Shown piece by piece: positions 1-31,800 of a DNA stretch of 64,000 bases (position 1 is its first letter; the number at the start of each line of letters is the position of its first letter). The position numbers and the translations under genes are program-made. This stretch comes from Schmidtea polychroa. Lineage: Eukaryota. The stretch is from NCBI GenBank assembly GCA_044892525.1, contig CM097887.1, positions 142,640,397-142,704,396 of the forward strand, written 5' to 3'. The notes under the pieces are model-generated. The model had not been told where the DNA came from and searched no databases. It was given only the letters and a program-made list of their open reading frames with translations.

Positions 1-39
1 CTAAGCAGAAGATTGCGGGTTCGAGTCCCGCCGTGGGTA
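1..39 (+). tRNA. tRNA-Arg(CCT), 3' part, truncated by the window edge
   Basis: Identical to the last 39 nt of the array Arg gene. Confidence 0.9.
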
Positions 40-158
40 AATTTTATTCTCAACCAGAAATTTGAAATTTAGCAAAAAATAGGTCTCATCCAAAACTCAA
101 TGATATCTCACGACGACAAAGAAAAGTTTTTTGAAACAGAGATACAAGTAAAATTAAT

Positions 159-230
159 GGGCTCAGCCGGGAATTGAACCCGGGACCTCTCGCACCCGAA
201 GCGAGAATCATACCCCTAGACCACTGAGCC
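159..230 (-). tRNA. tRNA-Pro(CGG), first of 42 copies (159+442k; -1 after the deletion near 10361)
   Basis: Reverse complement GGCTCAGTGGTCTAGGGGTATGATTCTCGCTTCGGGTGCGAGAGGTCCCGGGTTCAATTCCCGGCTGAGCCC. Cloverleaf with anticodon stem CTCGC/GCGAG and loop TT-CGG-GT; very close to metazoan tRNA-Pro-CGG; T4 Pol III terminator just downstream on the minus strand. Confidence 0.97.
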
Positions 231-408
231 AACAATTATATTTTGTTACAAAGTAGAAATCTATTGGAAAAATTCTCAATTTTCAATTTCTCGTTTTTTA
301 TTGAAAATAAGTGAGTAAGTAAAAACAAGTTATTGTTTGGGGATTATGAATCATGTCAAATGTATTTTCAGAATGTTATTTAGATTTGAAAATTAAAATT
401 TTTCTTAA

Positions 409-481
409 GCCCGCGTGGCCTAATGGATAAGGCGTCTGCCTCCTAAGCAGAAGATTGCGGGTTCGAGTCCCGCCGTGGGTA
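409..481 (+). tRNA. tRNA-Arg(CCT), first complete copy of 42 (409+442k; -1 after the deletion near 10361)
   Basis: GCCCGCGTGGCCTAATGGATAAGGCGTCTGCCTCCTAAGCAGAAGATTGCGGGTTCGAGTCCCGCCGTGGGTA. Anticodon stem TCTGC/GCAGA, loop CT-CCT-AA, A and B boxes intact, T4 terminator at 484-487; very close to metazoan tRNA-Arg-CCT. Confidence 0.97.
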
Positions 482-600
482 AATTTTATTCTCAACCAGA
501 AATTTGAAATTTAGCAAAAAATAGGTCTCATCCAAAACTCAATGATATCTCACGACGACAAAGAAAAGTTTTTTGAAACAGAGATACAAGTAAAATTAAT

Positions 601-672
601 GGGCTCAGCCGGTAATTGAACCCGGGACCTCTCGCACCCGAAGCGAGAATCATACCCCTAGACCACTGAGCC
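601..672 (-). pseudogene. tRNA-Pro(CGG) copy with C61A in the B box/T-stem
   Basis: Plus strand reads ccggtaattg where other copies read ccgggaattg (position 613). Breaks the G53-C61 pair. Could be a sequencing error. Confidence 0.5.
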
Positions 673-6154: not shown

Positions 6155-6227
6155 GCCCGCGTGGCCTAATGGATAAGGCGTCTGCCTCCTAAGCAGAAGA
6201 TTGCGGGTTCGTGTCCCGCCGTGGGTA
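6155..6227 (+). pseudogene. tRNA-Arg(CCT) copy with A58T in the T-loop/B box
   Basis: GGTTCGTGTCC where other copies read GGTTCGAGTCC (position 6212). Could be a sequencing error. Confidence 0.5.
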
Positions 6228-9200
6228 AATTTTATTCTCAACCAGAAATTTGAAATTTAGCAAAAAATAGGTCTCATCCAAAACTCAATGATATCTCACG
6301 ACGACAAAGAAAAGTTTTTTGAAACAGAGATACAAGTAAAATTAATGGGCTCAGCCGGGAATTGAACCCGGGACCTCTCGCACCCGAAGCGAGAATCATA
6401 CCCCTAGACCACTGAGCCAACAATTATATTTTGTTACAAAGTAGAAATCTATTGGAAAAATTCTCAATTTTCAATTTCTCGTTTTTTATTGAAAATAAGT
6501 GAGTAAGTAAAAACAAGTTATTGTTTGGGGATTATGAATCATGTCAAATGTATTTTCAGAATGTTATTTAGATTTGAAAATTAAAATTTTTCTTAAGCCC
6601 GCGTGGCCTAATGGATAAGGCGTCTGCCTCCTAAGCAGAAGATTGCGGGTTCGAGTCCCGCCGTGGGTAAATTTTATTCTCAACCAGAAATTTGAAATTT
6701 AGCAAAAAATAGGTCTCATCCAAAACTCAATGATATCTCACGACGACAAAGAAAAGTTTTTTGAAACAGAGATACAAGTAAAATTAATGGGCTCAGCCGG
6801 GAATTGAACCCGGGACCTCTCGCACCCGAAGCGAGAATCATACCCCTAGACCACTGAGCCAACAATTATATTTTGTTACAAAGTAGAAATCTATTGGAAA
6901 AATTCTCAATTTTCAATTTCTCGTTTTTTATTGAAAATAAGTGAGTAAGTAAAAACAAGTTATTGTTTGGGGATTATGAATCATGTCAAATGTATTTTCA
7001 GAATGTTATTTAGATTTGAAAATTAAAATTTTTCTTAAGCCCGCGTGGCCTAATGGATAAGGCGTCTGCCTCCTAAGCAGAAGATTGCGGGTTCGAGTCC
7101 CGCCGTGGGTAAATTTTATTCTCAACCAGAAATTTGAAATTTAGCAAAAAATAGGTCTCATCCAAAACTCAATGATATCTCACGACGACAAAGAAAAGTT
7201 TTTTGAAACAGAGATACAAGTAAAATTAATGGGCTCAGCCGGGAATTGAACCCGGGACCTCTCGCACCCGAAGCGAGAATCATACCCCTAGACCACTGAG
7301 CCAACAATTATATTTTGTTACAAAGTAGAAATCTATTGGAAAAATTCTCAATTTTCAATTTCTCGTTTTTTATTGAAAATAAGTGAGTAAGTAAAAACAA
7401 GTTATTGTTTGGGGATTATGAATCATGTCAAATGTATTTTCAGAATGTTATTTAGATTTGAAAATTAAAATTTTTCTTAAGCCCGCGTGGCCTAATGGAT
7501 AAGGCGTCTGCCTCCTAAGCAGAAGATTGCGGGTTCGAGTCCCGCCGTGGGTAAATTTTATTCTCAACCAGAAATTTGAAATTTAGCAAAAAATAGGTCT
7601 CATCCAAAACTCAATGATATCTCACGACGACAAAGAAAAGTTTTTTGAAACAGAGATACAAGTAAAATTAATGGGCTCAGCCGGGAATTGAACCCGGGAC
7701 CTCTCGCACCCGAAGCGAGAATCATACCCCTAGACCACTGAGCCAACAATTATATTTTGTTACAAAGTAGAAATCTATTGGAAAAATTCTCAATTTTCAA
7801 TTTCTCGTTTTTTATTGAAAATAAGTGAGTAAGTAAAAACAAGTTATTGTTTGGGGATTATGAATCATGTCAAATGTATTTTCAGAATGTTATTTAGATT
7901 TGAAAATTAAAATTTTTCTTAAGCCCGCGTGGCCTAATGGATAAGGCGTCTGCCTCCTAAGCAGAAGATTGCGGGTTCGAGTCCCGCCGTGGGTAAATTT
8001 TATTCTCAACCAGAAATTTGAAATTTAGCAAAAAATAGGTCTCATCCAAAACTCAATGATATCTCACGACGACAAAGAAAAGTTTTTTGAAACAGAGATA
8101 CAAGTAAAATTAATGGGCTCAGCCGGGAATTGAACCCGGGACCTCTCGCACCCGAAGCGAGAATCATACCCCTAGACCACTGAGCCAACAATTATATTTT
8201 GTTACAAAGTAGAAATCTATTGGAAAAATTCTCAATTTTCAATTTCTCGTTTTTTATTGAAAATAAGTGAGTAAGTAAAAACAAGTTATTGTTTGGGGAT
8301 TATGAATCATGTCAAATGTATTTTCAGAATGTTATTTAGATTTGAAAATTAAAATTTTTCTTAAGCCCGCGTGGCCTAATGGATAAGGCGTCTGCCTCCT
8401 AAGCAGAAGATTGCGGGTTCGAGTCCCGCCGTGGGTAAATTTTATTCTCAACCAGAAATTTGAAATTTAGCAAAAAATAGGTCTCATCCAAAACTCAATG
8501 ATATCTCACGACGACAAAGAAAAGTTTTTTGAAACAGAGATACAAGTAAAATTAATGGGCTCAGCCGGGAATTGAACCCGGGACCTCTCGCACCCGAAGC
8601 GAGAATCATACCCCTAGACCACTGAGCCAACAATTATATTTTGTTACAAAGTAGAAATCTATTGGAAAAATTCTCAATTTTCAATTTCTCGTTTTTTATT
8701 GAAAATAAGTGAGTAAGTAAAAACAAGTTATTGTTTGGGGATTATGAATCATGTCAAATGTATTTTCAGAATGTTATTTAGATTTGAAAATTAAAATTTT
8801 TCTTAAGCCCGCGTGGCCTAATGGATAAGGCGTCTGCCTCCTAAGCAGAAGATTGCGGGTTCGAGTCCCGCCGTGGGTAAATTTTATTCTCAACCAGAAA
8901 TTTGAAATTTAGCAAAAAATAGGTCTCATCCAAAACTCAATGATATCTCACGACGACAAAGAAAAGTTTTTTGAAACAGAGATACAAGTAAAATTAATGG
9001 GCTCAGCCGGGAATTGAACCCGGGACCTCTCGCACCCGAAGCGAGAATCATACCCCTAGACCACTGAGCCAACAATTATATTTTGTTACAAAGTAGAAAT
9101 CTATTGGAAAAATTCTCAATTTTCAATTTCTCGTTTTTTATTGAAAATAAGTGAGTAAGTAAAAACAAGTTATTGTTTGGGGATTATGAATCATGTCAAA

Positions 9201-10324
9201 TGTATTTTCAGAATGTTATTTAGATTTGAAAATTAAAATTTTTCTTAAGCCCGCGTGGCCTAATGGATAAGGCGTCTGCCTCCTAAGCAGAAGATTGCGG
9301 GTTCGAGTCCCGCCGTGGGTAAATTTTATTCTCAACCAGAAATTTGAAATTTAGCAAAAAATAGGTCTCATCCAAAACTCAATGATATCTCACGACGACA
9401 AAGAAAAGTTTTTTGAAACAGAGATACAAGTAAAATTAATGGGCTCAGCCGGGAATTGAACCCGGGACCTCTCGCACCCGAAGCGAGAATCATACCCCTA
9501 GACCACTGAGCCAACAATTATATTTTGTTACAAAGTAGAAATCTATTGGAAAAATTCTCAATTTTCAATTTCTCGTTTTTTATTGAAAATAAGTGAGTAA
9601 GTAAAAACAAGTTATTGTTTGGGGATTATGAATCATGTCAAATGTATTTTCAGAATGTTATTTAGATTTGAAAATTAAAATTTTTCTTAAGCCCGCGTGG
9701 CCTAATGGATAAGGCGTCTGCCTCCTAAGCAGAAGATTGCGGGTTCGAGTCCCGCCGTGGGTAAATTTTATTCTCAACCAGAAATTTGAAATTTAGCAAA
9801 AAATAGGTCTCATCCAAAACTCAATGATATCTCACGACGACAAAGAAAAGTTTTTTGAAACAGAGATACAAGTAAAATTAATGGGCTCAGCCGGGAATTG
9901 AACCCGGGACCTCTCGCACCCGAAGCGAGAATCATACCCCTAGACCACTGAGCCAACAATTATATTTTGTTACAAAGTAGAAATCTATTGGAAAAATTCT
10001 CAATTTTCAATTTCTCGTTTTTTATTGAAAATAAGTGAGTAAGTAAAAACAAGTTATTGTTTGGGGATTATGAATCATGTCAAATGTATTTTCAGAATGT
10101 TATTTAGATTTGAAAATTAAAATTTTTCTTAAGCCCGCGTGGCCTAATGGATAAGGCGTCTGCCTCCTAAGCAGAAGATTGCGGGTTCGAGTCCCGCCGT
10201 GGGTAAATTTTATTCTCAACCAGAAATTTGAAATTTAGCAAAAAATAGGTCTCATCCAAAACTCAATGATATCTCACGACGACAAAGAAAAGTTTTTTGA
10301 AACAGAGATACAAGTAAAATTAAT

Positions 10325-10395
10325 GGGCTCAGCCGGGAATTGAACCCGGGACCTCTCGCACCGAAGCGAGAATCATACCCCTAGACCACTGAGCC
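10325..10395 (-). pseudogene. tRNA-Pro copy with a 1-nt deletion in the anticodon loop
   Basis: cgca-ccgaag where other copies read cgca-cccgaag, giving a 6-nt loop. It is a homopolymer deletion, so it may be an error. Confidence 0.45.
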
Positions 10396-13300
10396 AACAA
10401 TTATATTTTGTTACAAAGTAGAAATCTATTGGAAAAATTCTCAATTTTCAATTTCTCGTTTTTTATTGAAAATAAGTGAGTAAGTAAAAACAAGTTATTG
10501 TTTGGGGATTATGAATCATGTCAAATGTATTTTCAGAATGTTATTTAGATTTGAAAATTAAAATTTTTCTTAAGCCCGCGTGGCCTAATGGATAAGGCGT
10601 CTGCCTCCTAAGCAGAAGATTGCGGGTTCGAGTCCCGCCGTGGGTAAATTTTATTCTCAACCAGAAATTTGAAATTTAGCAAAAAATAGGTCTCATCCAA
10701 AACTCAATGATATCTCACGACGACAAAGAAAAGTTTTTTGAAACAGAGATACAAGTAAAATTAATGGGCTCAGCCGGGAATTGAACCCGGGACCTCTCGC
10801 ACCCGAAGCGAGAATCATACCCCTAGACCACTGAGCCAACAATTATATTTTGTTACAAAGTAGAAATCTATTGGAAAAATTCTCAATTTTCAATTTCTCG
10901 TTTTTTATTGAAAATAAGTGAGTAAGTAAAAACAAGTTATTGTTTGGGGATTATGAATCATGTCAAATGTATTTTCAGAATGTTATTTAGATTTGAAAAT
11001 TAAAATTTTTCTTAAGCCCGCGTGGCCTAATGGATAAGGCGTCTGCCTCCTAAGCAGAAGATTGCGGGTTCGAGTCCCGCCGTGGGTAAATTTTATTCTC
11101 AACCAGAAATTTGAAATTTAGCAAAAAATAGGTCTCATCCAAAACTCAATGATATCTCACGACGACAAAGAAAAGTTTTTTGAAACAGAGATACAAGTAA
11201 AATTAATGGGCTCAGCCGGGAATTGAACCCGGGACCTCTCGCACCCGAAGCGAGAATCATACCCCTAGACCACTGAGCCAACAATTATATTTTGTTACAA
11301 AGTAGAAATCTATTGGAAAAATTCTCAATTTTCAATTTCTCGTTTTTTATTGAAAATAAGTGAGTAAGTAAAAACAAGTTATTGTTTGGGGATTATGAAT
11401 CATGTCAAATGTATTTTCAGAATGTTATTTAGATTTGAAAATTAAAATTTTTCTTAAGCCCGCGTGGCCTAATGGATAAGGCGTCTGCCTCCTAAGCAGA
11501 AGATTGCGGGTTCGAGTCCCGCCGTGGGTAAATTTTATTCTCAACCAGAAATTTGAAATTTAGCAAAAAATAGGTCTCATCCAAAACTCAATGATATCTC
11601 ACGACGACAAAGAAAAGTTTTTTGAAACAGAGATACAAGTAAAATTAATGGGCTCAGCCGGGAATTGAACCCGGGACCTCTCGCACCCGAAGCGAGAATC
11701 ATACCCCTAGACCACTGAGCCAACAATTATATTTTGTTACAAAGTAGAAATCTATTGGAAAAATTCTCAATTTTCAATTTCTCGTTTTTTATTGAAAATA
11801 AGTGAGTAAGTAAAAACAAGTTATTGTTTGGGGATTATGAATCATGTCAAATGTATTTTCAGAATGTTATTTAGATTTGAAAATTAAAATTTTTCTTAAG
11901 CCCGCGTGGCCTAATGGATAAGGCGTCTGCCTCCTAAGCAGAAGATTGCGGGTTCGAGTCCCGCCGTGGGTAAATTTTATTCTCAACCAGAAATTTGAAA
12001 TTTAGCAAAAAATAGGTCTCATCCAAAACTCAATGATATCTCACGACGACAAAGAAAAGTTTTTTGAAACAGAGATACAAGTAAAATTAATGGGCTCAGC
12101 CGGGAATTGAACCCGGGACCTCTCGCACCCGAAGCGAGAATCATACCCCTAGACCACTGAGCCAACAATTATATTTTGTTACAAAGTAGAAATCTATTGG
12201 AAAAATTCTCAATTTTCAATTTCTCGTTTTTTATTGAAAATAAGTGAGTAAGTAAAAACAAGTTATTGTTTGGGGATTATGAATCATGTCAAATGTATTT
12301 TCAGAATGTTATTTAGATTTGAAAATTAAAATTTTTCTTAAGCCCGCGTGGCCTAATGGATAAGGCGTCTGCCTCCTAAGCAGAAGATTGCGGGTTCGAG
12401 TCCCGCCGTGGGTAAATTTTATTCTCAACCAGAAATTTGAAATTTAGCAAAAAATAGGTCTCATCCAAAACTCAATGATATCTCACGACGACAAAGAAAA
12501 GTTTTTTGAAACAGAGATACAAGTAAAATTAATGGGCTCAGCCGGGAATTGAACCCGGGACCTCTCGCACCCGAAGCGAGAATCATACCCCTAGACCACT
12601 GAGCCAACAATTATATTTTGTTACAAAGTAGAAATCTATTGGAAAAATTCTCAATTTTCAATTTCTCGTTTTTTATTGAAAATAAGTGAGTAAGTAAAAA
12701 CAAGTTATTGTTTGGGGATTATGAATCATGTCAAATGTATTTTCAGAATGTTATTTAGATTTGAAAATTAAAATTTTTCTTAAGCCCGCGTGGCCTAATG
12801 GATAAGGCGTCTGCCTCCTAAGCAGAAGATTGCGGGTTCGAGTCCCGCCGTGGGTAAATTTTATTCTCAACCAGAAATTTGAAATTTAGCAAAAAATAGG
12901 TCTCATCCAAAACTCAATGATATCTCACGACGACAAAGAAAAGTTTTTTGAAACAGAGATACAAGTAAAATTAATGGGCTCAGCCGGGAATTGAACCCGG
13001 GACCTCTCGCACCCGAAGCGAGAATCATACCCCTAGACCACTGAGCCAACAATTATATTTTGTTACAAAGTAGAAATCTATTGGAAAAATTCTCAATTTT
13101 CAATTTCTCGTTTTTTATTGAAAATAAGTGAGTAAGTAAAAACAAGTTATTGTTTGGGGATTATGAATCATGTCAAATGTATTTTCAGAATGTTATTTAG
13201 ATTTGAAAATTAAAATTTTTCTTAAGCCCGCGTGGCCTAATGGATAAGGCGTCTGCCTCCTAAGCAGAAGATTGCGGGTTCGAGTCCCGCCGTGGGTAAA

Positions 13301-16300
13301 TTTTATTCTCAACCAGAAATTTGAAATTTAGCAAAAAATAGGTCTCATCCAAAACTCAATGATATCTCACGACGACAAAGAAAAGTTTTTTGAAACAGAG
13401 ATACAAGTAAAATTAATGGGCTCAGCCGGGAATTGAACCCGGGACCTCTCGCACCCGAAGCGAGAATCATACCCCTAGACCACTGAGCCAACAATTATAT
13501 TTTGTTACAAAGTAGAAATCTATTGGAAAAATTCTCAATTTTCAATTTCTCGTTTTTTATTGAAAATAAGTGAGTAAGTAAAAACAAGTTATTGTTTGGG
13601 GATTATGAATCATGTCAAATGTATTTTCAGAATGTTATTTAGATTTGAAAATTAAAATTTTTCTTAAGCCCGCGTGGCCTAATGGATAAGGCGTCTGCCT
13701 CCTAAGCAGAAGATTGCGGGTTCGAGTCCCGCCGTGGGTAAATTTTATTCTCAACCAGAAATTTGAAATTTAGCAAAAAATAGGTCTCATCCAAAACTCA
13801 ATGATATCTCACGACGACAAAGAAAAGTTTTTTGAAACAGAGATACAAGTAAAATTAATGGGCTCAGCCGGGAATTGAACCCGGGACCTCTCGCACCCGA
13901 AGCGAGAATCATACCCCTAGACCACTGAGCCAACAATTATATTTTGTTACAAAGTAGAAATCTATTGGAAAAATTCTCAATTTTCAATTTCTCGTTTTTT
14001 ATTGAAAATAAGTGAGTAAGTAAAAACAAGTTATTGTTTGGGGATTATGAATCATGTCAAATGTATTTTCAGAATGTTATTTAGATTTGAAAATTAAAAT
14101 TTTTCTTAAGCCCGCGTGGCCTAATGGATAAGGCGTCTGCCTCCTAAGCAGAAGATTGCGGGTTCGAGTCCCGCCGTGGGTAAATTTTATTCTCAACCAG
14201 AAATTTGAAATTTAGCAAAAAATAGGTCTCATCCAAAACTCAATGATATCTCACGACGACAAAGAAAAGTTTTTTGAAACAGAGATACAAGTAAAATTAA
14301 TGGGCTCAGCCGGGAATTGAACCCGGGACCTCTCGCACCCGAAGCGAGAATCATACCCCTAGACCACTGAGCCAACAATTATATTTTGTTACAAAGTAGA
14401 AATCTATTGGAAAAATTCTCAATTTTCAATTTCTCGTTTTTTATTGAAAATAAGTGAGTAAGTAAAAACAAGTTATTGTTTGGGGATTATGAATCATGTC
14501 AAATGTATTTTCAGAATGTTATTTAGATTTGAAAATTAAAATTTTTCTTAAGCCCGCGTGGCCTAATGGATAAGGCGTCTGCCTCCTAAGCAGAAGATTG
14601 CGGGTTCGAGTCCCGCCGTGGGTAAATTTTATTCTCAACCAGAAATTTGAAATTTAGCAAAAAATAGGTCTCATCCAAAACTCAATGATATCTCACGACG
14701 ACAAAGAAAAGTTTTTTGAAACAGAGATACAAGTAAAATTAATGGGCTCAGCCGGGAATTGAACCCGGGACCTCTCGCACCCGAAGCGAGAATCATACCC
14801 CTAGACCACTGAGCCAACAATTATATTTTGTTACAAAGTAGAAATCTATTGGAAAAATTCTCAATTTTCAATTTCTCGTTTTTTATTGAAAATAAGTGAG
14901 TAAGTAAAAACAAGTTATTGTTTGGGGATTATGAATCATGTCAAATGTATTTTCAGAATGTTATTTAGATTTGAAAATTAAAATTTTTCTTAAGCCCGCG
15001 TGGCCTAATGGATAAGGCGTCTGCCTCCTAAGCAGAAGATTGCGGGTTCGAGTCCCGCCGTGGGTAAATTTTATTCTCAACCAGAAATTTGAAATTTAGC
15101 AAAAAATAGGTCTCATCCAAAACTCAATGATATCTCACGACGACAAAGAAAAGTTTTTTGAAACAGAGATACAAGTAAAATTAATGGGCTCAGCCGGGAA
15201 TTGAACCCGGGACCTCTCGCACCCGAAGCGAGAATCATACCCCTAGACCACTGAGCCAACAATTATATTTTGTTACAAAGTAGAAATCTATTGGAAAAAT
15301 TCTCAATTTTCAATTTCTCGTTTTTTATTGAAAATAAGTGAGTAAGTAAAAACAAGTTATTGTTTGGGGATTATGAATCATGTCAAATGTATTTTCAGAA
15401 TGTTATTTAGATTTGAAAATTAAAATTTTTCTTAAGCCCGCGTGGCCTAATGGATAAGGCGTCTGCCTCCTAAGCAGAAGATTGCGGGTTCGAGTCCCGC
15501 CGTGGGTAAATTTTATTCTCAACCAGAAATTTGAAATTTAGCAAAAAATAGGTCTCATCCAAAACTCAATGATATCTCACGACGACAAAGAAAAGTTTTT
15601 TGAAACAGAGATACAAGTAAAATTAATGGGCTCAGCCGGGAATTGAACCCGGGACCTCTCGCACCCGAAGCGAGAATCATACCCCTAGACCACTGAGCCA
15701 ACAATTATATTTTGTTACAAAGTAGAAATCTATTGGAAAAATTCTCAATTTTCAATTTCTCGTTTTTTATTGAAAATAAGTGAGTAAGTAAAAACAAGTT
15801 ATTGTTTGGGGATTATGAATCATGTCAAATGTATTTTCAGAATGTTATTTAGATTTGAAAATTAAAATTTTTCTTAAGCCCGCGTGGCCTAATGGATAAG
15901 GCGTCTGCCTCCTAAGCAGAAGATTGCGGGTTCGAGTCCCGCCGTGGGTAAATTTTATTCTCAACCAGAAATTTGAAATTTAGCAAAAAATAGGTCTCAT
16001 CCAAAACTCAATGATATCTCACGACGACAAAGAAAAGTTTTTTGAAACAGAGATACAAGTAAAATTAATGGGCTCAGCCGGGAATTGAACCCGGGACCTC
16101 TCGCACCCGAAGCGAGAATCATACCCCTAGACCACTGAGCCAACAATTATATTTTGTTACAAAGTAGAAATCTATTGGAAAAATTCTCAATTTTCAATTT
16201 CTCGTTTTTTATTGAAAATAAGTGAGTAAGTAAAAACAAGTTATTGTTTGGGGATTATGAATCATGTCAAATGTATTTTCAGAATGTTATTTAGATTTGA

Positions 16301-18279
16301 AAATTAAAATTTTTCTTAAGCCCGCGTGGCCTAATGGATAAGGCGTCTGCCTCCTAAGCAGAAGATTGCGGGTTCGAGTCCCGCCGTGGGTAAATTTTAT
16401 TCTCAACCAGAAATTTGAAATTTAGCAAAAAATAGGTCTCATCCAAAACTCAATGATATCTCACGACGACAAAGAAAAGTTTTTTGAAACAGAGATACAA
16501 GTAAAATTAATGGGCTCAGCCGGGAATTGAACCCGGGACCTCTCGCACCCGAAGCGAGAATCATACCCCTAGACCACTGAGCCAACAATTATATTTTGTT
16601 ACAAAGTAGAAATCTATTGGAAAAATTCTCAATTTTCAATTTCTCGTTTTTTATTGAAAATAAGTGAGTAAGTAAAAACAAGTTATTGTTTGGGGATTAT
16701 GAATCATGTCAAATGTATTTTCAGAATGTTATTTAGATTTGAAAATTAAAATTTTTCTTAAGCCCGCGTGGCCTAATGGATAAGGCGTCTGCCTCCTAAG
16801 CAGAAGATTGCGGGTTCGAGTCCCGCCGTGGGTAAATTTTATTCTCAACCAGAAATTTGAAATTTAGCAAAAAATAGGTCTCATCCAAAACTCAATGATA
16901 TCTCACGACGACAAAGAAAAGTTTTTTGAAACAGAGATACAAGTAAAATTAATGGGCTCAGCCGGGAATTGAACCCGGGACCTCTCGCACCCGAAGCGAG
17001 AATCATACCCCTAGACCACTGAGCCAACAATTATATTTTGTTACAAAGTAGAAATCTATTGGAAAAATTCTCAATTTTCAATTTCTCGTTTTTTATTGAA
17101 AATAAGTGAGTAAGTAAAAACAAGTTATTGTTTGGGGATTATGAATCATGTCAAATGTATTTTCAGAATGTTATTTAGATTTGAAAATTAAAATTTTTCT
17201 TAAGCCCGCGTGGCCTAATGGATAAGGCGTCTGCCTCCTAAGCAGAAGATTGCGGGTTCGAGTCCCGCCGTGGGTAAATTTTATTCTCAACCAGAAATTT
17301 GAAATTTAGCAAAAAATAGGTCTCATCCAAAACTCAATGATATCTCACGACGACAAAGAAAAGTTTTTTGAAACAGAGATACAAGTAAAATTAATGGGCT
17401 CAGCCGGGAATTGAACCCGGGACCTCTCGCACCCGAAGCGAGAATCATACCCCTAGACCACTGAGCCAACAATTATATTTTGTTACAAAGTAGAAATCTA
17501 TTGGAAAAATTCTCAATTTTCAATTTCTCGTTTTTTATTGAAAATAAGTGAGTAAGTAAAAACAAGTTATTGTTTGGGGATTATGAATCATGTCAAATGT
17601 ATTTTCAGAATGTTATTTAGATTTGAAAATTAAAATTTTTCTTAAGCCCGCGTGGCCTAATGGATAAGGCGTCTGCCTCCTAAGCAGAAGATTGCGGGTT
17701 CGAGTCCCGCCGTGGGTAAATTTTATTCTCAACCAGAAATTTGAAATTTAGCAAAAAATAGGTCTCATCCAAAACTCAATGATATCTCACGACGACAAAG
17801 AAAAGTTTTTTGAAACAGAGATACAAGTAAAATTAATGGGCTCAGCCGGGAATTGAACCCGGGACCTCTCGCACCCGAAGCGAGAATCATACCCCTAGAC
17901 CACTGAGCCAACAATTATATTTTGTTACAAAGTAGAAATCTATTGGAAAAATTCTCAATTTTCAATTTCTCGTTTTTTATTGAAAATAAGTGAGTAAGTA
18001 AAAACAAGTTATTGTTTGGGGATTATGAATCATGTCAAATGTATTTTCAGAATGTTATTTAGATTTGAAAATTAAAATTTTTCTTAAGCCCGCGTGGCCT
18101 AATGGATAAGGCGTCTGCCTCCTAAGCAGAAGATTGCGGGTTCGAGTCCCGCCGTGGGTAAATTTTATTCTCAACCAGAAATTTGAAATTTAGCAAAAAA
18201 TAGGTCTCATCCAAAACTCAATGATATCTCACGACGACAAAGAAAAGTTTTTTGAAACAGAGATACAAGTAAAATTAAT

Positions 18280-18351
18280 GGGCTCAGCCGGGAATTGAAC
18301 CCGGGACCTCTCGCACCCGAAGCGAGAATCATACCCCTAGACCACTGAGCC
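18280..18351 (-). tRNA. tRNA-Pro(CGG), last array copy
   Basis: Identical to the consensus unit. Confidence 0.95.
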
Positions 18352-18529
18352 AACAATTATATTTTGTTACAAAGTAGAAATCTATTGGAAAAATTCTCAA
18401 TTTTCAATTTCTCGTTTTTTATTGAAAATAAGTGAGTAAGTAAAAACAAGTTATTGTTTGGGGATTATGAATCATGTCAAATGTATTTTCAGAATGTTAT
18501 TTAGATTTGAAAATTAAAATTTTTCTTAA

Positions 18530-18602
18530 GCCCGCGTGGCCTAATGGATAAGGCGTCTGCCTCCTAAGCAGAAGATTGCGGGTTCGAGTCCCGCCGTGGG
18601 TA
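18530..18602 (+). tRNA. tRNA-Arg(CCT), last array copy
   Basis: Identical to the consensus. Followed by a spacer with a 33-bp internal deletion and then an A10 run. Confidence 0.95.
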
Positions 18603-18689
18603 AATTTTATTCTCAACCAGAAATTTGAAATTTAGCAAAAAATAGGTCTCATCCAAAACTTTGAAACAGAGATACAAGTAAAAAAAAAA

Positions 18690-21449
18690 GTAATAGCAAC
18701 ACAAATAGTAATTCAATTACATCGAATGGTTTGGAACTTTCACCAAATCAGCTGAAGGATATTTACACGTCCTTCCCTTGTCTTAAGGAGATTGGTTTTG
18801 TGGAGAGTCCTTCAATTAAGTCATCATCTATGGCGAAATTGATTGATTCTTTGAAATTGAATAAAACGTTTCCCGAAAACATATTTTATGAAGGGGGTTA
18901 CGTTTTTCCGATCCAATACAAATTCTAACGAATCCAGGAATTCATCTGACATCATATTCAATCTTCGATTATTTGATTTAGTCGACATGGCTGAAGAGGA
19001 TGTTGAATTAAAAGCGATTTTAGAAAGACAGAACTGCCGTCTTAAGATTATTGAGATTGTTTTTCATCTCAATTCCTTGGGTTTGGTTGGATCTTTGAAA
19101 TTCTTAGAAAATCAAACTTACGCTGATTATGTTAGAAACTACATTCGAAATTGCTCTTTGATAAACTCAGTTTGTTCGATTGATGATCTTCTTTATGTTT
19201 CTGGGCTCCTGAAATCATTGAAAACATCCCAAACTCTTCCTATTCCTACAGTAGCTGTAAGGAAAAGCTTATAAAATTAAGGAAATGGAAACTGTCTGGA
19301 GAGATTAAAAAGATTCACAATATAATTTCTCCTGGAACTATATCTTGTGGTTATTTTTTCCTTAGCCTTGTTGACAAAAATTCAGTTTCTAAATCTCGAA
19401 AACTAAATGTCATCACTAAATTAATGGAAACCATTAATGATAAAATACTACTTGATGACACACGCGGAATAAAGTCAAAACGATTTACTTACTTTATTTT
19501 GCGAGACTTAAAGAAGTTGATGATGAAAAACATTAAATTCCGACTTTATACAGACAGCAATAAATACTGCACGCCAGAAATGGCCCAACAAATAATTTTG
19601 ATTATAGTGAAGCTCAAAACTGTTGTGACCAATGAACTGGGATATCAAAGTTTGGAACAAAATTGCGATATTGATAATCCAACTGATAACATTGAAAATA
19701 TTGAGCCTATTTTTATTGCTGAAGCTATGAGTTGCAAGAAATGCAATAATTAACTTGAAAAATGTATCTTAGTTAGAGAAGGAACAAATGTGAATGTTTG
19801 TGAGAACTGCTTATATGATGCAATTTCCTTTGTACAGCTAACATTGGATGAATGCAGTTCAAATACTGAAAAATCTTTAGAAAACTCTTCAAAGAAAATT
19901 TTTCCAAAATCAAAATTGAAAACTTTGAGAATTGGATCATCGAAAACAAAATGAACATGTGTGCCTGCATCAGCTCAAGCGTAAGTCATTCCATCTACCG
20001 AGACTGATGCAAAGAGCACATTAAAATCTAATAACCTCACAATTGCTGATCGTGATCCTGAAAAGTGGTTAACCGACAGCGACATTGACTGGTATCTTGA
20101 GAATAAGATTGATAATCCTATGCATGGATATCTGAAATGCTTTCTAGTCAATATTTTCTGCTCGAATATTTCAGAAGAAATCGTTTCAATTCCTCAAACA
20201 ACAACCAATGCTGATATAGTCTTTTGTCTCTTGAATATTAATAATTCACATTGGATCCTATTTGCTTATTGCAAAAAATCGCTTTCGTCCTATTTTTTTG
20301 ATCCAATTTTTTATAATCGGAACAAGTTCATTAATAAGCAGATGTCTCTGAAGATCAATATTGCATTGAACAGATATTTCAACCTCAGGATTGCCAATCT
20401 TGAACATCAAAACAACAATTTCGATTGTGAACCATTCACTTGCGCAAATACTTTGATAATCAGTAAAGAATGTATTAACTTTCCTGGTGGTTTCATAGAA
20501 GAAATAAGAAGAGATGTGCATCAATATCAGAAAAGCATATTAGGTAATGTACCAAATCTATCTGGTGGCTCAAAACACGGAAAATTGAACATGTCATCCA
20601 TCAATTTTAAAAAGGCAATCGCAAAAAAGAAGATGTTCATAAATAATTCAGCAATGACGCGAATGTTTGAAACTCAAACACCGTGTGTGTCATCATTAAT
20701 TAGCAAATACTATGAAAATATTCCTAAGATATTAGTATTATCCGTTAACTTACATCAAACTTAATTGTGCAAAATAATTCATTTATAACTGACAATGTCA
20801 CCTTCAAACAATTCAAAGGAATTGATCACATTTTAAGCGTAATTCCGAAATTTAACGACTGGTGTCTCTTTATCTATTCGACTAAACTTAACAAAAGTTA
20901 TATGTTTGATTTCAATTACCGAAACGTTGACGACAGATTTATGAAATTGGTGGGAAAATAACCGATTACCTCTGAACCGTAAAGTCAAATTCATCGCTGA
21001 TCATAGCATCTCACATCCTTCGTTTCACTCGAATGACAATCAATATTTTGCGTGTGGTTTTGTTGTGTTTTTTGAAAAACTTGTTTTTGAAAGACTTCTC
21101 GACTTTGATAAAGTATTCGAATTTCTTGGTAAAATAAAATTCGAATTCTGTAATGAGATTTCGCCTGGCCTTAATTTGATCCACTGGAAAATTACTGATA
21201 AAATTATTTTTGAATATTTTAATAACCTAAAATTATCAGATAAATATATATTGCTAAATAGAACCATGTGTAATGCAATTTCAGATGATTGTACTCAATA
21301 TCTGAAAGACTTTTTAAACATTGAATACATGATGAAAGCATCCGTAATCTTTGCAATAATTTCACCTCCTAAAGCCCATGAATTACATTTGGTGATCGAC
21401 TATGACTCAGATGGCAACACTTCACCAGGGTTAAATAATGTAAACGATA
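18690..21449 (+). mobile_element. Disrupted remnant of a Ulp1/C48-protease-encoding element, probably a NeSL/R5-clade (planarian LIN-type) non-LTR retrotransposon; no RT or endonuclease is present
   Basis: ORFs 18731, 18888, 19424, 20120, 20767 and 21065 look like pieces of one ORF. 19424-20764 is a single frame broken only by three stops (19751, ~19948, ~19978). It contains CKKC..CENC, then WLTDSDIDWYL..NSHWILF..YFFDP..HQNNNFDC (Ulp1 H/D/Q/C motifs) and two degenerate repeats (NDWCLF..MFDF..YFACG; ITDKIIFEYF..AHELHLVIDY..NDKDCG). The clade assignment rests on known NeSL domain architecture, not on a search. Confidence 0.72.
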
Positions 21450-21524
21450 AAGATTGCGGATTCGAGTCCTGCCGTGGGTACATTTTATTCTCAACCAGAA
21501 ATTTGAAATTAAGGAGAAAATAGG
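21450..21524 (+). pseudogene. Relic of the array unit: tRNA-Arg positions 43-73 plus downstream spacer
   Basis: aagattgcggattcgagtcctgccgtgggtacattttattctcaaccagaaatttgaaatt versus the array aagattgcgggttcgagtcccgccgtgggtaaattttattctcaaccagaaatttgaaatt. G53A destroys the B box. Confidence 0.93.
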
Positions 21525-23080
21525 CAAAAACTAAAAGCTTATAAAGTGTTTTTTCATTCTCGTTTGATCTTCCCGTTTACAACTAGAGAAATTATAACCA
21601 GTTCACTAGCTGATCCTTTTTCAGATTCAAAGAATAAGATAAATAATACCAGCCAACTCAGGAATCATTTAAGAAAGATTAAGTAAAAGATTAAGTTTTT
21701 GTATTTGTATAATAAATATTATGCGACGAAGTCATTATAACCTTTAGAAAACTGAAGGGAATAAAGAAATGTTGCAAAGCCGGATGAAGTAATCCGAAGA
21801 TATAATCAGACTATCCAGCAGATAAAGACGAGTCGAAAATGAAAGCTTATGGACTTTTCCATGTTGAAAAGATTATCTGTGATAAAACACGGTATTTGAT
21901 GTAGTATTTATTTAATCAAATGGTAATTTAATTACAAATTATATTTAATTATTTTAAATATTTCTTATGAAGGTTATGTCAAAAAAGATTTTCGAATGCT
22001 AAGACCAAAGAAATTTGAAGAGAAACATAAGAAAGGCTAAGTTGAAATGGGTTTTATTAATTCGTTATTGTTTAGTCAGGATTGCAGCATTTACTTTTTG
22101 TCTAATTTATTTTTGTTTAGTTAATATTTTACATTATTTACTAAATGAATATTATCTATATGATTATTTCATGTAATATCATTTATATTGTCACTAGTGA
22201 GTGTTGCAAATATGTTTAAAAATGTTTTGAATAATTTATTTTCCCTTATAGGTGTAGTTAGTGTGGTGAAATCAAGTTGATATTCTTGGTTGTCATTCGT
22301 GGAAATGATTAAATGTGAGTAACCCATGTTAAAATCGTAATATCTGTTTACTTTTTTGTTGTAAGGTGCACTTGAGGTGGATAGGCTTCATTTGACCTAT
22401 TATAGTGATTTAAGAGCAAGTGATTTAACACATATAAGAGGTATGGTGAATGAATAGTTATTGAAAATAAACAGTGAATATGTTACATTTTTAATTTTTA
22501 TATTTTATAAGTTAATAATGTTTGAACTTGTATTAAAGAAACCTGTAGATTCTATCAAAGATAACAGTATGAAGTGTGTGAAGTTGATTAAACTCGGAAT
22601 TTATAGAAATAATTATAATAATATTTAAAGAATAGATTTGGACAATTCTTAAAGAATAAAAAATAGCTTTTAAAAGTCAGTAATTTTGAATTGCAAAATA
22701 AATTTGTCATTTTAAATCATGTCCAAAATGAAAATCCATCAAGAATTTGGTATCTATATTCTTAGTATTGCTATTAAATTTTTTCAAAAAGAAATTTTTG
22801 TTGAAAATCAATTTTTCTGATTTCTGTAATAAATCCCATCAATCCTATACATTTATTATTTTCCTTATTGTTTGTATAAGCTGGGTAAAATTAAAATAAA
22901 AATAAACTTAAAAAATAAATATCAAGATGAACATAGTACAATAAAAGCAACTTGATAATAATTTAATTTAAACTGTAAATAATATTAGCAAATTTATTTT
23001 TATTTCTCTATTTAAAATTTGTTTAACTTAAATGTAACCATGGTATTTACTAATAATCAAACCAATTCACTTTTAAAATA

Positions 23081-25828: not shown

Positions 25829-28800
25829 ATGCTATTGAAAAGAAAAGGTAATTGCAATTTACAAGACTTTGAATAAAATAAAAATTAACTAGCTCCGTCT
25901 GCTAAATCCAATATTAAAAATGATTCACTTTCTAATAATATTAAATTTGAGGACAGACCAATTGTTAAGGTTATGCTTACTTTAATTTCTAGGTGAATAT
26001 AATTTTTACAGGAAGAAGCATTAGATACTGTATTTACAAATTTTGAAAATAATGAAAAAAGGGAGGAATCGAACTCTGAGTTGAATTTCGCCGATAGAAA
26101 TTCTTCAGTAATAAAACCACTAACAATCCATAAAAACATTACTATTAGTGAAGAGTTGCCTGATATTGTTAGCGTTGACAATCCTGTGAGTGAGAAATGT
26201 AATGATGAAATATTGAACGATAAATCAACAACGCTAGCAAAAAAGAAATCGGAAGTAGTTACAGGTAGAAAGAGAAAATTAACAACATCCGCAAGCATTT
26301 CTAAAGTGAAAAATAAAATTAAACCTCCGAAATCACTCGATTCTGGTAATGTTTCAAATTTAGAAATGATTCTAATTTGATAATGAATAGGTGTGTATGT
26401 AGAATGCGATTTGTGCCATAAAACCCGATATTTGAAAGATATCCTAAATCCAAGTGCTATCCCACCTGTTTGGACTTGTGAAATGGCAAATAGTTCTTTA
26501 AATTGCTCAGTGCCGCAGGAAAACTTCGAGAATTCTGTCAACTATTTTATCAACAATAATTATACCCTTGGCTCAGTTGTATGGGCTAAGGCTCCTGGTA
26601 TTTATAATTAAATTTATGCTCTTATCAATCTCACAGCTGTGTAATTTTATTAACTTTATTATTTAAAAAAATTTTACAATTCTTTTATAAATATCTCGGG
26701 CTACTAACAAATTTATCAGTAGTTAAAATTTATAGCTATGGTAATATCAATTAATTTATTTTTAAATTAGGATTTTGTATATTATTAATGAGTTGTTAAT
26801 TATATATTAATATATTTCTAATCGATTGTCAATCGAATCTATTTGTTAAAATATTATATGGTCATACAGTTTTGTCAATTGAATAGCCATTTGCGTTTCA
26901 ATGAGTCCCTTTTAAATGACTAAAATCGCTTGCTGATGTGGTATTTTAGAATGTATGAAGAATTCTTTATAATTGTAAAGAAAACAAAACAGAGTGTATA
27001 TTTGAGGTTGTAAATATTATCTGAATCAGCAAATAACAAAGATTTCCGACATAAATTTTCCAGTGGCCATCAACTGTAAGCTATAATAAAGTTTTTTTTC
27101 ATTGACTAAAATTTTTATGACAATTGATCTGTAATTTTTTAAAGAACTACAAAAATTTTCAAAAGCGCTTATTAAACCCCTTTGAAAGCCTAATAATTTA
27201 TCAGTTTAAATTTTATCCATATTTTTCGGGAGAAGGATTGGAAACCGGCACCAAATGAAAAAAGAGAAAGAAATATAATAATTTCAAATTTCTGGAGGCT
27301 ACTTACTTAAAAAAATTGAGTTATGTTTCTAAAATGATTGAAAGGCCTAAACAATATTAAATCAACGATTTTCATTTATATCATTTTTAATTGTGCAAAT
27401 TCTTTCTTTTCTCTTCACCTTATAAGCTATTATCTTTTCTAATTTTATTAGGTCTACAGAATTCATTTAATTTTACTGTCTTTTTATTTTCAAAATTATT
27501 ATCATTTGGTAAATTAATATTTAATTTATTACTAAGTTTTTTATCTTTATTATTTTTAATTATACATTTATTATTACAGCTAATATTATTTACATTACTA
27601 TTATTTTTATTTAATGCAAGACTACTTCTACAATTAATTAATTTATTGCTAATATTAAAATTATTTAAATCAAAACATGCATATATCATAATTATTATTA
27701 CCATTTATTGCCTTACCCCCAATCAGCCACAAAGACTGAATAAATTTCCGTCGTATAATAACGGCTAATTTGATTATTTTAATTAAAATATTTTTGCACA
27801 TGTTTTAATTCAATTTTATATATAATAAACCGTAAAAAATCGAATAATATTTAACCTGAAACGTGTTCATAAATAAATATGATTCTCAACGGGCGGGTCT
27901 CCTTATAGTCCGAGGCACTGAAGCATTGATTGTTACTGAGTTGATTTCATTTGAAAATTCGTTTTTGTCAACAATTCACCAAAAAATAATTTAATTAAGT
28001 TCTATTGGACAATAATAATTTTAATTAAGGATTTTGTTGGTGGCCAGCAATTATTGACGATGATCCAGATTTAGATATGTTTTATTGGTGTTATGAACAC
28101 TCTGATGATGTGAGCCATTATCATGTAACTTTTCTCGACGATGATGTCAGTAGGTCATGGATTACAACCAAGGACATAAAAGTATTTCGTGGCAAAGCAG
28201 ATATGTCTTCAATGAAGGTAAATAATGATTATCATTATTTATTTTGTATGCTTAGAGTTTAAATGTTAATTTTGTTCTGCTTATATCTCATAACTAAGGT
28301 AAAATGCTTATTATCACCCCGACCCCCCCCCCCCCCCCGCACTGTGACTAGGTCAATGATATGTTTTAATTGACTTGTCTTGCATACTATTCCATGAGGA
28401 TTCAGGCAGGATATGAGTAAGCCTGGCAAGAAGTTGGAAAACGTGCGCCAGGTTACCCGCCCGCCCGCTCGACAGGTGGGTAACCGAATACCTGTTCACG
28501 CTACAATCTTGATATGAAATAGCACTAACCTGTAACATCGTGTACTTTGTTATTGCGCGCATGGTGCAGAACGACAGTAGTCAACAACTGATGCACGAAT
28601 CTAATAAACTTTGTTGCTGATTTTTGCTACTATTTTTTTATTGTTTTTATTTGTGGCATTCACTGTATTGTTTCTTGTATGAGGGAGTGATTATTGTGTC
28701 TTTGTCTTGTTTTGCGGGTTTTGGTTTTGGTGGTTGGGTTTTATTCGCCGCCTTGTTGTTATTTTTAATTATTGTGGCGACGTTTTTTTGATTTCTAGGA

Positions 28801-31800
28801 GTTTGAATTGGCCTTCGTATTTGGATTCGAAACCTTTTGTGAATGGTTTTTTTATTAGTATGAAATTTGTTGATAGCACTGTTTTTCCATCCAATTCAGA
28901 GTCCGTGTTTCCGATGTTTTTGTTAGTTGTTTGTTTCTGTATTTTCTGTTGTTCTGTTTTTGAATGATGGGAGGTTTGATTCTCTGCCAGAAACTTTGAA
29001 AGAAGGGCTTCATTGTCGATTGAGTTGGTTTTCCTTAAACCCAGTAAGATTGTCGGTAGTTCGTTAAGCCAATTTCTGTCGTTTGCTTTGGTTCTAATGC
29101 TTTGTTTAAGTGTCCTATGTAACCTTTCGATTTTTCCGTTTGCTTGTGGGTTGTAAGCCGTGGTTCGGTTGCGTTTTATTTCGTATTTTTTACATAGGGT
29201 CTTAAATAATTCCGACTCGAACTGTCTCCCCTGATCTGTTATCAATGTTTGAGGTTGTCCATATGGGCCTATCCAGTTTAGTTCGATGTTGTTACAGATG
29301 TTTTGTGCTGATATTTCTTTCAGTGGGATTATTTCGAACCAGTTTGTCTTTCTGTCTATTATCGTTATTCTTTATTTGGTGGTCCTACTATGTCTATGTG
29401 TATTATTTCGAAAGCTTGGCTGCTTGGGAAATTTACTTTTCAACCGTTAGTTTTTTGCGGTTTTGTTGATCTGGCAACTTTTGCATGTCTTGAGGAAATC
29501 TTTTATTTCTTTTCGCATGTTTGGCCATATGTATTTGTTGTGGATGATTTCGAATGCGGCCTTATTTCCTGGGTGATTGATGTCGTTAATCTTTGAGATG
29601 CACGAATTCCTGAATTCTTTCGGTAGGAATATTCTTGGTGAGTTTTCATTACTGACGTCGTACCAGCAATCGTTGATTTGTTAGAGTTTTAGGCTATGTT
29701 TTGTTGGTAGCTCTTTCAGTGTTTCTGCTTGTTTGTTTTTGATTGTTTCGACTTCGAACATTTCGCTGAATTCGAGTGCGTTTATGTCTGTTTCGGTTCT
29801 CGACAATGTGTCTGCTGCTATGTTTGCTGCTCCCGCGATATAATTGATTGTAGTTGAATTGTGATATGTAGTTTAATTGTCTTATTTGTCTAAGTGATGG
29901 GTTTTACATTTCTATCGCGTTTGAAAGATGTTTGTGGTCTGTATAAATCTTGAAGTTCCTTGCTTCTAGTAGGTGTTGGAAATGTTTTATGACTTCATGA
30001 ATTGCGAGCAGTTCCCGATCGAATGTAGAATATCTTGTCTGGCGGGTTTTTAATTTCTTGGAGAAGAAACCGATAGGTTGTATAGCAAATTCATTGTCTT
30101 GGTAAAGAGTTGCTTTCATTGCGAATCCGGAACAATCTGTTGCTAAGTTGTAATCTCGTTTTGGATCCGGGTATCCAAGTAATGTGGCTTGAGATAAACT
30201 TGTTTTTGCTTTCTCAAAGTTTTTGATTGCTCGGTCCAGTTTATTTTGATGTTTCGTATTGTTTTGATAAGGTCGTAAAGGGGGAGGCTAAAAGTTGACT
30301 GCAATTTGGTATATAGGAGTGGTAGAAGTTTGTCATTCCCAGAAATCATCTAAGTTCTCTATTTGAATTTGGCAGTTGGAATTGTTGGATTGGGTTGGTT
30401 TTTTTCTCGATAGGCTTTGCCTTTTTCATCTAATGTGTGCCCGAGGAAATTAATGTCTTTTTTCATAAATTCACATTTTTGGGCGTTTATTTTGAGGTTT
30501 GCTGTATTTAGTGCTTTCGTCTATGTCTTTTAGGTGAGATTGTTTATTTGGACTGGCTATTAATATGTCCAAATATGCGAATGTGTTTCTGTTGCTTTTC
30601 ACGGTTCGATCCATGAAACGTTGAAATGTTGCTGCTGCATTTCGTAAACCAAATGGCATTCGGTTGTATTCGAAAATGCCGATTGGTGTTTTTTATGTCC
30701 TCCTTTCTGATTGGAATTTGGTGGTAAGCTTTTTGCAAGTCAATTTTTGAGAAAATCTTTTCTCCTTTGAGTCTGTTTATTATATCTCTTATGATCGGCA
30801 GTGGGTAGTTCTGTTTTGGTTCTGTTTTGATCCTTTTCTGAACTAGTTTTTTTAATATTCTTTTTCATCTTTTCCTGAACTAGTTTTTTTAATATTCTTT
30901 TCAATTTCCTTCTGAATTTGTTCTATGGTATTCTTTTCTTAATTCTGGTTGTCCATATTTTTTTCGATTTTATTGATTTTTCCCCCTTTTTTTTCTATAG
31001 CGATAATTTAGTATGGTAAATTATAGCTTTATAGTTTTATTTTAAAGTTATTTTCCTACGCGTAACACGTGGTGGTTAAAATTAAAACCCGCATTAAATT
31101 ATAAAAAAAAATATAATATCACAATACATTACACTAACCATCCAATGGACATGATTCCAAATGGCAGTGATATTTTAGTAGCAAATGTCCATATTTATCA
31201 CAATTGAAGAGTGGAAAATAATAAATTTATTCATTACAGAATTAAGAGATGTATTCAAAGTAATCTGAATGGAAATATACAATTCAAAATATACAAAATG
31301 ACCATATTTACAAGTCCAGGCTGACAGCAGAACATTGATAACATTGAGTACTGCATGAGAGATGATTTGGAGAAATATATTGTGAAATATGACCGAGTAG
31401 AGAGAGAATTGTATGCAACACAATCCCCGGTCCATAGCTGCTGTCACTCAGCCATTAGATCAAGTTATTTTCAGTTGCAAAACATAAGGACAGCCAAGAT
31501 CAATGGCAACCACAGAAATCGGAGTGGACATGAATGATGTGAATAATTGATATATTTGTACCTGAAATCTCAGTGGATATTTTGTCTGCCTACAATTTAA
31601 TGTTGATAATCCTCTACTAGTTCAAAGGCATAGTGGAAGATCTTTTCCATATATCCAGTAAATAAATAGTCGGAAAATCAATACTCTTTAAATGATGCGT
31701 AGGCATGTTTTGCATCTTTCCATTTGTTGGGGTAATGTAAAGAAGCACAAAATAAAACGAAAGTAGAATAAAAATCAATAACAACACCGGAATAACGAAA

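Follow-up and report, generated by a model that had tools for sequence, protein, structure and literature searches.

A decayed LIN15_SM-like retrotransposon, probably stranded at the edge of a tRNA-Arg/tRNA-Pro gene array in Schmidtea polychroa

Retrotransposons without long terminal repeats (LTRs) that insert into tRNA genes have been described in Schmidtea mediterranea, where LIN15_SM is reported at four types of tRNA-Arg gene, CCT and CCG among them, and LIN25_SM is reported as specific for tRNA-Glu, at about nucleotide (nt) 6 of the gene (Kojima and Jurka, 2015, PMC4640811; here and below, statements on this source refer to excerpts of its text and figures). According to the same excerpts, intact target genes lie upstream of the insertions of oomycete Utopia elements, as in the family described here. 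The A box of tRNA genes is used by the Dada DNA transposons (PMC8869645, in excerpt), and in the literature searched on the targets of LIN elements PMC4640811 was the only source found. The present work concerns a 64,000-nt stretch of Schmidtea polychroa DNA (GenBank assembly GCA_044892525.1, contig CM097887.1, positions 142,640,397 to 142,704,396 of the forward strand; hereafter the window), in which the right end of a tandem array of tRNA genes meets the remains of an element with a Ulp1-type protease. An initial annotation, made from the letters alone, had proposed a NeSL-clade element dedicated to tRNA-Arg, and its mention of LIN15_SM as a tRNA-Arg-specific family agrees with the published description, in which tRNA-Arg(CCT) is included.

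Judged by its sequence, the window relic is a dead mosaic copy of a non-LTR family encoding a reverse transcriptase (RT) and a restriction-like endonuclease (RLE), a family like LIN15_SM and probably of the R5/LIN lineage in the NeSL clade. Very probably it is a LIN15_SM-like, tRNA-targeting RLE element that was left stranded at the array edge by deletions and homogenisation, more likely than not after two neighbouring insertions (Table 1). The placement is based on a Ulp1 protease upstream of the RT, a junction in the tRNA D-arm and a 3' end of ~25 nt that looks like that of LIN15_SM by eye. When the genome was searched with the relic, the 40 of 369 candidates that were scored comprised the relic itself, 8 copies at 89-92% and 31 at 71-72%. 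Intact relatives measure ~7.5 kb, lie within tRNA arrays and consist of open reading frame 1 (ORF1, ~780-900 codons), one in-frame TGA and ORF2 (~1,535 codons), with the order Ulp1, RT, CCHC knuckle and RLE in ORF2; the knuckle and RLE motifs were picked by eye, using what we take to be their usual definitions. The ORF2 of a relative matches RVT_1 (E 2e-28) and C48 (E 3e-9) in Pfam, and the best solved relatives of the family ORF2 are R2 proteins (E 4e-48, PDB), as expected from the earlier proposal of a Ulp1-bearing RT/RLE non-LTR family. A Ulp1-bearing DNA transposon (MULE or CACTA) or a host SENP was considered and rejected, given that the protease frame runs on into the RT in intact relatives and that the copies end as 3' untranslated region (UTR) at tRNA genes. 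Among four subfamilies, here called A to D, ORF2 identity is 52-80% (53-55% between D and A). For ORF1, no Pfam family and no usable Atlas match was obtained, which indicates neither novelty nor absence. Short complementary blocks in the element 3' UTR, in the window and in relatives, are kept across subfamilies by eye and are possibly a structure recognised by the RT.

Measured against one natural family copy of 7,474 nt, which served as reference ruler, the pieces of the relic are colinear with the element: reference nt 1246-4018 and 4755-4800, the tRNA piece, then nt 5777-5933 and 7244-7442. What had been read as one decayed ORF of 2.76 kb is indeed decayed coding sequence from ~18,692 onward, but it consists of the 3' half of ORF1 and the start of ORF2, split by the family-wide TGA. 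Both CxxC pairs noticed earlier were located within 19,733-19,810, with motifs at 19,733-19,744 and 19,799-19,810; they belong to ORF1, and the pair is present in subfamilies A and B and absent from the C and D copies checked. On the right, tRNA-Arg from nt 43 onward had been reported together with its spacer. The tRNA part is there, on the same strand, but the spacer amounts to a 44-nt trailer, and the element does not end inside the gene. Because element sequence resumes as a post-RT piece and a 3' UTR and runs to ~21,900, the tRNA piece is internal to the relic. It corresponds to unit nt 43-117 of the array (75 nt, same strand, E 4e-26) and derives from genomic DNA, since the trailer continues past the T-run behind the gene. 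The piece occupies the place of ~976 nt of missing RT; its left join, at nt 43, has 5 nt of microhomology between element and tRNA, and its right join 2 nt. A further gap of ~1,310 nt before the 3' UTR removed the zinc knuckle and the RLE, and the other gaps of the relic show microhomology, plus filler repeating nearby letters. At the 3' end the final ~30 nt are absent and no tRNA follows the 3' UTR; for the DNA right of 21,900, only short AT-rich bits matched elsewhere. Contigs of three public sequencing runs, all from one study that is possibly the source of the assembly, cross the internal joins with 0 differences. A long-read or assembly artefact as the origin of the joins is unlikely, as these contigs span them unchanged.

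The protease reading was checked against Pfam, as had been suggested: among seven window frames scanned there was one match to Peptidase_C48, above the Pfam cut-off (E 1.6e-5), with His, Asp, Gln and Cys readable. A fold search, the rows of which covered domain 1 alone, related this domain of an intact relative to Ulp1/NEDP1 (Z 17.0-17.5). Three Ulp1-like domains had been proposed, and the first is established by these matches, whereas domains 2 and 3 have no Pfam C48 match, lack the catalytic set by eye and are related to domain 1 by weak hhalign scores (domains 1 and 3, 47%, E 2e-4; domains 1 and 2, 4.5%, E 0.009). An alignment-based structure model (8 sequences; mean predicted local distance difference test score, pLDDT, 69) predicts the same order of strands and helices three times; a separate fold model of domains 2 and 3 reached a pLDDT of 36. 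On this modelling, three Ulp1-like domains in the family are plausible; domain 3 is halved in the window. A metagenome scan returned five weak Ulp1-like loci, which were not used.

To see where the family inserts, 3' junctions were tabulated in three samples. The first took 30 of the 40 matches to the relic 3' UTR, 29 of them besides the relic itself. At 27 of these 29 loci, the 3' end joins a tRNA gene in sense orientation right after the D-loop GG, at about nt 19-21 (5 Arg(ACG), 1 Arg(CCG), 13 Ala and 8 Cys); the other two are spacer joins, namely the left edge of the array on contig C3 and its duplicate contig. A constant junction inside tRNA genes, which the initial annotation had named as the sign of targeting, therefore exists, but it lies at about nt 19-21 and not at nt 43. 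For the second sample, 20 stretches were drawn, roughly one for each cluster, out of the first 100 among 194 motif matches; 14 were elements and 6 chance matches, and 13 of the 14 belong to a distant subfamily that joins at nt ~6 of a Ser, Val, His, Met, Ala or Tyr-like gene, or of tRNA-like sequence that was not called as a gene. In the third, again of 20 stretches, 9 ends were complete (Arg-TCT, Met twice, Ile, Asn, Ala-AGC and three tRNA-like), 1 was cut, and 10 stretches fell short of the 3' end. Throughout the samples tabulated, where a complete 3' end meets a tRNA, it does so at nt ~19-21, ~6 or ~11, and never at 43. The subfamilies using the D-loop are found at Arg(ACG), Arg(CCG), Asn, Met, Ile, Ala and Cys genes, with one copy followed by Thr genes; taken alone, subfamily A and its sister were seen at Arg(ACG), Arg(CCG) and the edges of the Arg(CCT) array. 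The family thus inserts in arrays of many tRNA types, not of Arg alone. Some copies (loci L107, L112, L135, L136 and L137) are joined to tRNA-like sequence uncalled by ARAGORN.

At the 5' side, 17 of 19 junctions fall in spacer at +126 to +332 from the start of the intact upstream tRNA, the other 2 having no valid reference unit, and copies often lie only one or two units from each other. The window joins at +187 and +117 belong to this class of 5' junctions, +117 falling slightly below the range. In Cys arrays, subfamily C copies (among L081, L086 and L108 versus L082, L084 and L088) start with letters matching the spacer of Ala arrays, and one Arg(ACG) copy (L035) has ~50 nt of extra upstream spacer. 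Because of this foreign and extra spacer, the pattern suggests that transcripts start in upstream array DNA and bring it along.

These junctions bear directly on the possibility that an element dedicated to tRNA-Arg inserted at nt 43, with the array as a multicopy target in the way that rDNA serves R2. In its favour are the genuine tRNA piece in the orientation of the element, the use of Arg(CCT) by LIN15_SM in S. mediterranea (PMC4640811, in excerpt), and a second join near nt 45 in an Arg(TCG) array, but the element side of the nt-43 join is coding sequence from before the RT rather than a 3' end, the element resumes after the tRNA, no complete end lies at nt 43, many targets are not Arg, and the array holds no internal copy. 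We consider this explanation highly improbable.

Under our preferred reading, insertion would have taken place by target-primed reverse transcription, as is assumed from knowledge of RLE families, and a now-inactive subfamily would have inserted into Arg(CCN) genes at this locus. One array unit would have had a neighbouring copy on either side: the older one, truncated at its 5' end, would have met the trailer at unit nt 117, and the other would have lain to the left. Microhomology-mediated deletions may then have taken the RT, the RLE, tRNA nt 20-42 and the original junction at the D-loop, producing the join at nt 43. Unequal exchange or gene conversion would finally have homogenised and expanded an insertion-free unit between the window relic and its sister, ~123 kb further left. 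For the join itself, we lean slightly towards two neighbouring insertions plus deletion. Private changes are denser in the piece right of the tRNA than in the main piece (14/153 versus 49/1459, Fisher p 0.0016), while the same comparison in the left-edge relic, used as control, gave no difference (p 0.21). The join may instead come from a single copy, in which the 75-nt array piece would be templated filler, taken from the adjacent array during a double-strand-break repair that deleted the RT. The colinear pieces, the microhomology and nearby-letter filler at the other gaps, and a scrap left of the tRNA as diverged as the right piece would all fit, whereas a right join at the usual place of family 5' ends and a main piece less diverged than the right piece would not; in addition, a similar join near nt 45 elsewhere is a plain deletion. 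We hold the single-copy origin to be possible though rather unlikely. Under the two-copy and single-copy models alike, nt 43 is a repair scar. The comparable join is found in a subfamily B copy (L123, G000 C1:39,583,870-39,585,070), the truncated 3' UTR of which runs into tRNA-Arg(TCG) at nt ~45, and a common microhomology word or a fragile site may stand behind two scars at tRNA-Arg nt 43-47, although two cases are too few to decide.

Several observations weigh against the two-copy history and against targeting at this locus. Neither edge relic keeps a canonical Arg(CCT) junction and the patterns searched genome-wide gave 0, so that a D-loop insertion in this array is inferred; the 3' end of the relic has no tRNA behind it; and many of the 27 loci with the constant junction are array-amplified or lie on duplicate contigs and are not independent events. 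The age difference is soft, as one 150-nt bin of the main piece also carries 14 private changes, and a 41-nt scrap left of the tRNA is equally diverged (4/41). The divergence of the 3' UTR is uninformative, the control being equally diverged, and the colinear order suits a single copy equally well.

The array gives the other half of the evidence. Its 442-bp unit holds tRNA-Arg(CCT) on the plus strand and tRNA-Pro(CGG) on the minus strand, and 37 of 41 whole units in the window are identical. In one unit (441 nt), the tRNA-Pro at 10,325-10,395 lacks one base and was called with an abnormal anticodon loop. Followed end to end in the contig sequence, the whole array spans ~123 kb (G000 C3:142,535,559-142,659,056), that is ~280 units when the span is divided by 442; left of the window, 226 unit seeds are spaced 440-442 or 882-884 nt apart. 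No element match, and hence no internal insertion, was found inside it. The last unit, which the initial annotation had recognised on the left of the relic, does contain an intact tRNA-Arg and has no differences from the reference unit up to nt 131; then ~32 nt are missing, followed by unit nt 164-187, a short A-run and the 5'-truncated element. By contrast, none of the 272 unit copies compared matches the stranded piece exactly, the differences amounting to 5-11 of its 75 nt. The proposal that the relic marks the point where homogenisation stops fits both results.

The companion proposal, that the array is the active target of a dedicated element, did not hold. Exact tRNA-Arg(CCT) 5' halves number 604 in the genome, and two exact patterns for a canonical element/tRNA-Arg(CCT) D-loop junction gave 0 matches genome-wide, a search that did not extend to insertions at nt ~6 of Arg(CCT); of the Arg(CCT) genes, those of the C3 array were read through. 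With no internal insertion and 0 canonical junctions against 604 5' halves, the Arg(CCT)/Pro(CGG) array is not shown as a current target in this assembly; it gives the impression of having been purged, relics being left where homogenisation stops. The locus is a clean snapshot of array turnover, with ~280 near-identical, insertion-free units and one extinct subfamily at both ends.

The left end of the array abuts a second decayed copy, joined at spacer nt 351. This left edge (G000 C3:142,528,500-142,535,560, with a duplicate on C53) still has the RT, in decayed form; an inverted-repeat element of ~1.07 kb flanked by TA sits in the RLE region, and scrambled scraps of element and spacer lie upstream. 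The window and left-edge relics are each other's closest relatives (22 versus 4 versus 1 informative sites), and private changes by codon position (16/11/22) are close to neutral decay. Both relics might have reached the array by chance or off-target landing, or by rearrangement beside it, the array then growing between them. A canonical junction is missing at both edges, the left relic being joined at spacer nt 351, and some family copies sit at tRNA-like sequence uncalled by ARAGORN; yet the same rare subfamily lies at both ends, in array orientation and mixed with array scraps, and a related 3' fragment is canonical in tRNA-Arg(CCG), its subfamily being unsettled (87-90% to the left relic, 87.5% to subfamily A). 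Such an untargeted arrival seems to us unlikely. Edge mosaics recur: at another array edge (L035-L036, C219; L039-L040, C1:160.01-160.03 Mb), a copy of the Arg(ACG) subfamily breaks off within its 3' UTR and is followed directly by a fragment of another subfamily.

A second finding concerns the TGA between the two ORFs. The in-frame AAA-TGA, followed by R-C-V-P-A-S, occurs in 11 of 11 aligned copies from four subfamilies; its motif pattern has 413 genomic matches and 0 in the control, and when TAA, TAG and TGG were also allowed, the stop was TGA in all of the first 100 of 390 matches. Because 413 genomic copies retain the motif, the TGA at 19,952 is a family feature rather than decay. A tryptophan of the protease, ~37 codons downstream of the TGA, is encoded by an intact TGG in the copies studied here. 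The 13-pair stem that begins 6 nt past the stop is invariant, with folding z of -2.6 to -5.6, and within 1.5 kb on either side no 70-nt segment is more stable than the hairpin in three of four subfamilies, while in the fourth it ranks second. As 0 of 13 pairs covary among 11 sequences, the hairpin rests on invariance and folding energy; an Rfam scan of the reference ORF1, TGA and hairpin returned nothing but the neighbouring tRNA. Of the 13 residues that are invariant in the first 25 codons, 10 use one codon across the four subfamilies, against 21% of 661 elsewhere. A conserved in-frame stop, a 3' structure and excess synonymous conservation, the sequence marks of a readthrough signal, are thus all present, and the TGA-hairpin is a candidate signal for programmed readthrough. 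A subfamily C copy (L086, G000 C1:270,722,001-270,732,000) has a single open frame of 2,273 codons and the TGA-hairpin region seemingly missing.

Readthrough of UGA with a 3' stem-loop is known from alphaviruses, Drosophila kelch and SEPN1, and the stimulators described in the excerpts of Firth et al. (2011, PMC3159437) share with this one the UGA, a spacer of 6-12 nt, a stem of 10-16 bp and excess synonymous-site conservation. They differ in that the base after UGA is here A and not C (kelch also has UGA-A), in that the host is here a non-LTR element, and in that no compensatory changes are seen here. A rival is that ORF2 is made by termination-reinitiation, by analogy with SART1: SART1 and LINE-1 likewise have a bicistronic RNA, and SART1 requires a structure downstream of the ORF1 stop (PMC5972666, in excerpt). 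A GUG lies 6 nt after the stop, and three database proteins of 26-48% identity start with M-P-A-S or M-P-A-P, as if from the same GTG after the stop. In contrast to the overlapping stop-start of SART1 (PMC5972666, in excerpt), the two ORFs here share one frame, and no early AUG is conserved in ORF2 (residue 56 in A, ~145 in one D copy). A targeted literature search, which covered few subscription journals, found no description of a TGA-hairpin in NeSL/LIN elements. Should the TGA-hairpin prove to be a readthrough signal, a non-LTR element would here be expressing its ORF2 in an unusual way.

Two other features of the window lie outside these subjects. At 28,769-29,371, on the minus strand, an integrase core (rve, E 3e-7, narrowly missing the cut-off of Pfam) lies in a strongly AT-skewed region at 28-32 kb and is probably the remnant of an LTR retroelement. 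Ten copies of a GGTTAG unit, which we take to be a rotation of the TTAGGG telomere repeat, are found at 41,813-41,873, ~1.9 Mb from the contig end.

Table 1. Array and relic features in the window, in window coordinates.
Feature	Position	Strand	Remarks
Tandem array, right end	1-18,660	+	42.2 copies of a 442-bp unit, 99% matches
Last array unit	18,530-18,691	+	Intact tRNA-Arg 18,530-18,602; spacer to unit nt 131
ORF1, 3' half	18,692-19,951	+	Begins at reference nt 1246; frameshifted, stopped
In-frame TGA, ORF1/ORF2 boundary	19,952-19,954	+	Family feature, not decay
Predicted 13-bp stem-loop	19,961-20,019	+	6 nt past the TGA; one pair broken in the window relic; candidate recoding signal
Ulp1/SENP-type (C48) protease domain 1	20,024-20,530	+	Pfam; catalytic residues readable; limits approximate
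Putative degenerate Ulp1-like repeat 2 and first half of repeat 3	20,669-21,413	+	Frameshifted; limits approximate; weak support
46-nt scrap from immediately before the RT core	21,409-21,454	+	Reference nt 4755-4800; preceded by a gap of ~737 nt
Stranded array piece: tRNA-Arg(CCT) nt 43-73 and 44 nt of genomic trailer	21,450-21,524	+	92% identical to the unit
Post-RT piece of ORF2	21,523-21,679	+	Reference nt 5777-5933, 87% identical
Element 3' UTR	21,696-21,900	+	Reference nt 7244-7442; after a gap of ~1,310 nt with 16-nt filler

Taken together, the observations can be joined in one hypothesis, on which we are evenly divided: a LIN15/LIN25-like lineage may make its RT and endonuclease by hairpin-stimulated UGA readthrough, its subfamilies may partition most tRNA arrays through the A-box/D-arm, and the arrays may shed copies by homogenisation. 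If so, abundant ORF1 protein would be accompanied by a rare polyprotein of ORF1, Ulp1 (perhaps three domains), RT and RLE, which its own Ulp1 might trim; a non-LTR element would then follow a gag-pol strategy like that of retroviruses. The family also offers several related RLE enzymes (53-80% identical) that differ in their tRNA targets and have at least two cut positions between them, and so form a natural series for the study of shifts in site specificity.

Compared with the described systems, the family stands closest to LIN15_SM, with which it shares a sense 3' junction in the tRNA-Arg D-arm, no more than ~5 nt from the boundary drawn in S6 Fig of PMC4640811. The last ~25 nt of subfamily A and of LIN15_SM are very similar by eye, in a comparison limited to the printed junctions, and the Arg(CCT) gene and trailer in the same figure nearly match the window array. 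LIN15_SM differs in being shown, in these excerpts, solely at tRNA-Arg, whereas the family described here is also found at non-Arg tRNAs and its window copy is dead; the strict mark of LIN15_SM, specificity for tRNA-Arg, is not shared by the wider D-loop group, and dedication to tRNA-Arg, as first proposed, is not upheld. LIN25_SM resembles subfamily D in its join at nt ~6 and in its 3' end, but its target is Glu, against Ser, Val, His, Met, Ala and Tyr-like genes for subfamily D, to which the window relic does not belong (PMC4640811). In NeSL-1 and Utopia-1_TSP of nematodes, a Ulp1-like protease likewise lies upstream of the RT, with an RLE and site-specific insertion; their targets are spliced-leader or U2 genes and, in the excerpts of PMC4640811, one protease domain is described, whereas here two further degenerate repeats may be present.

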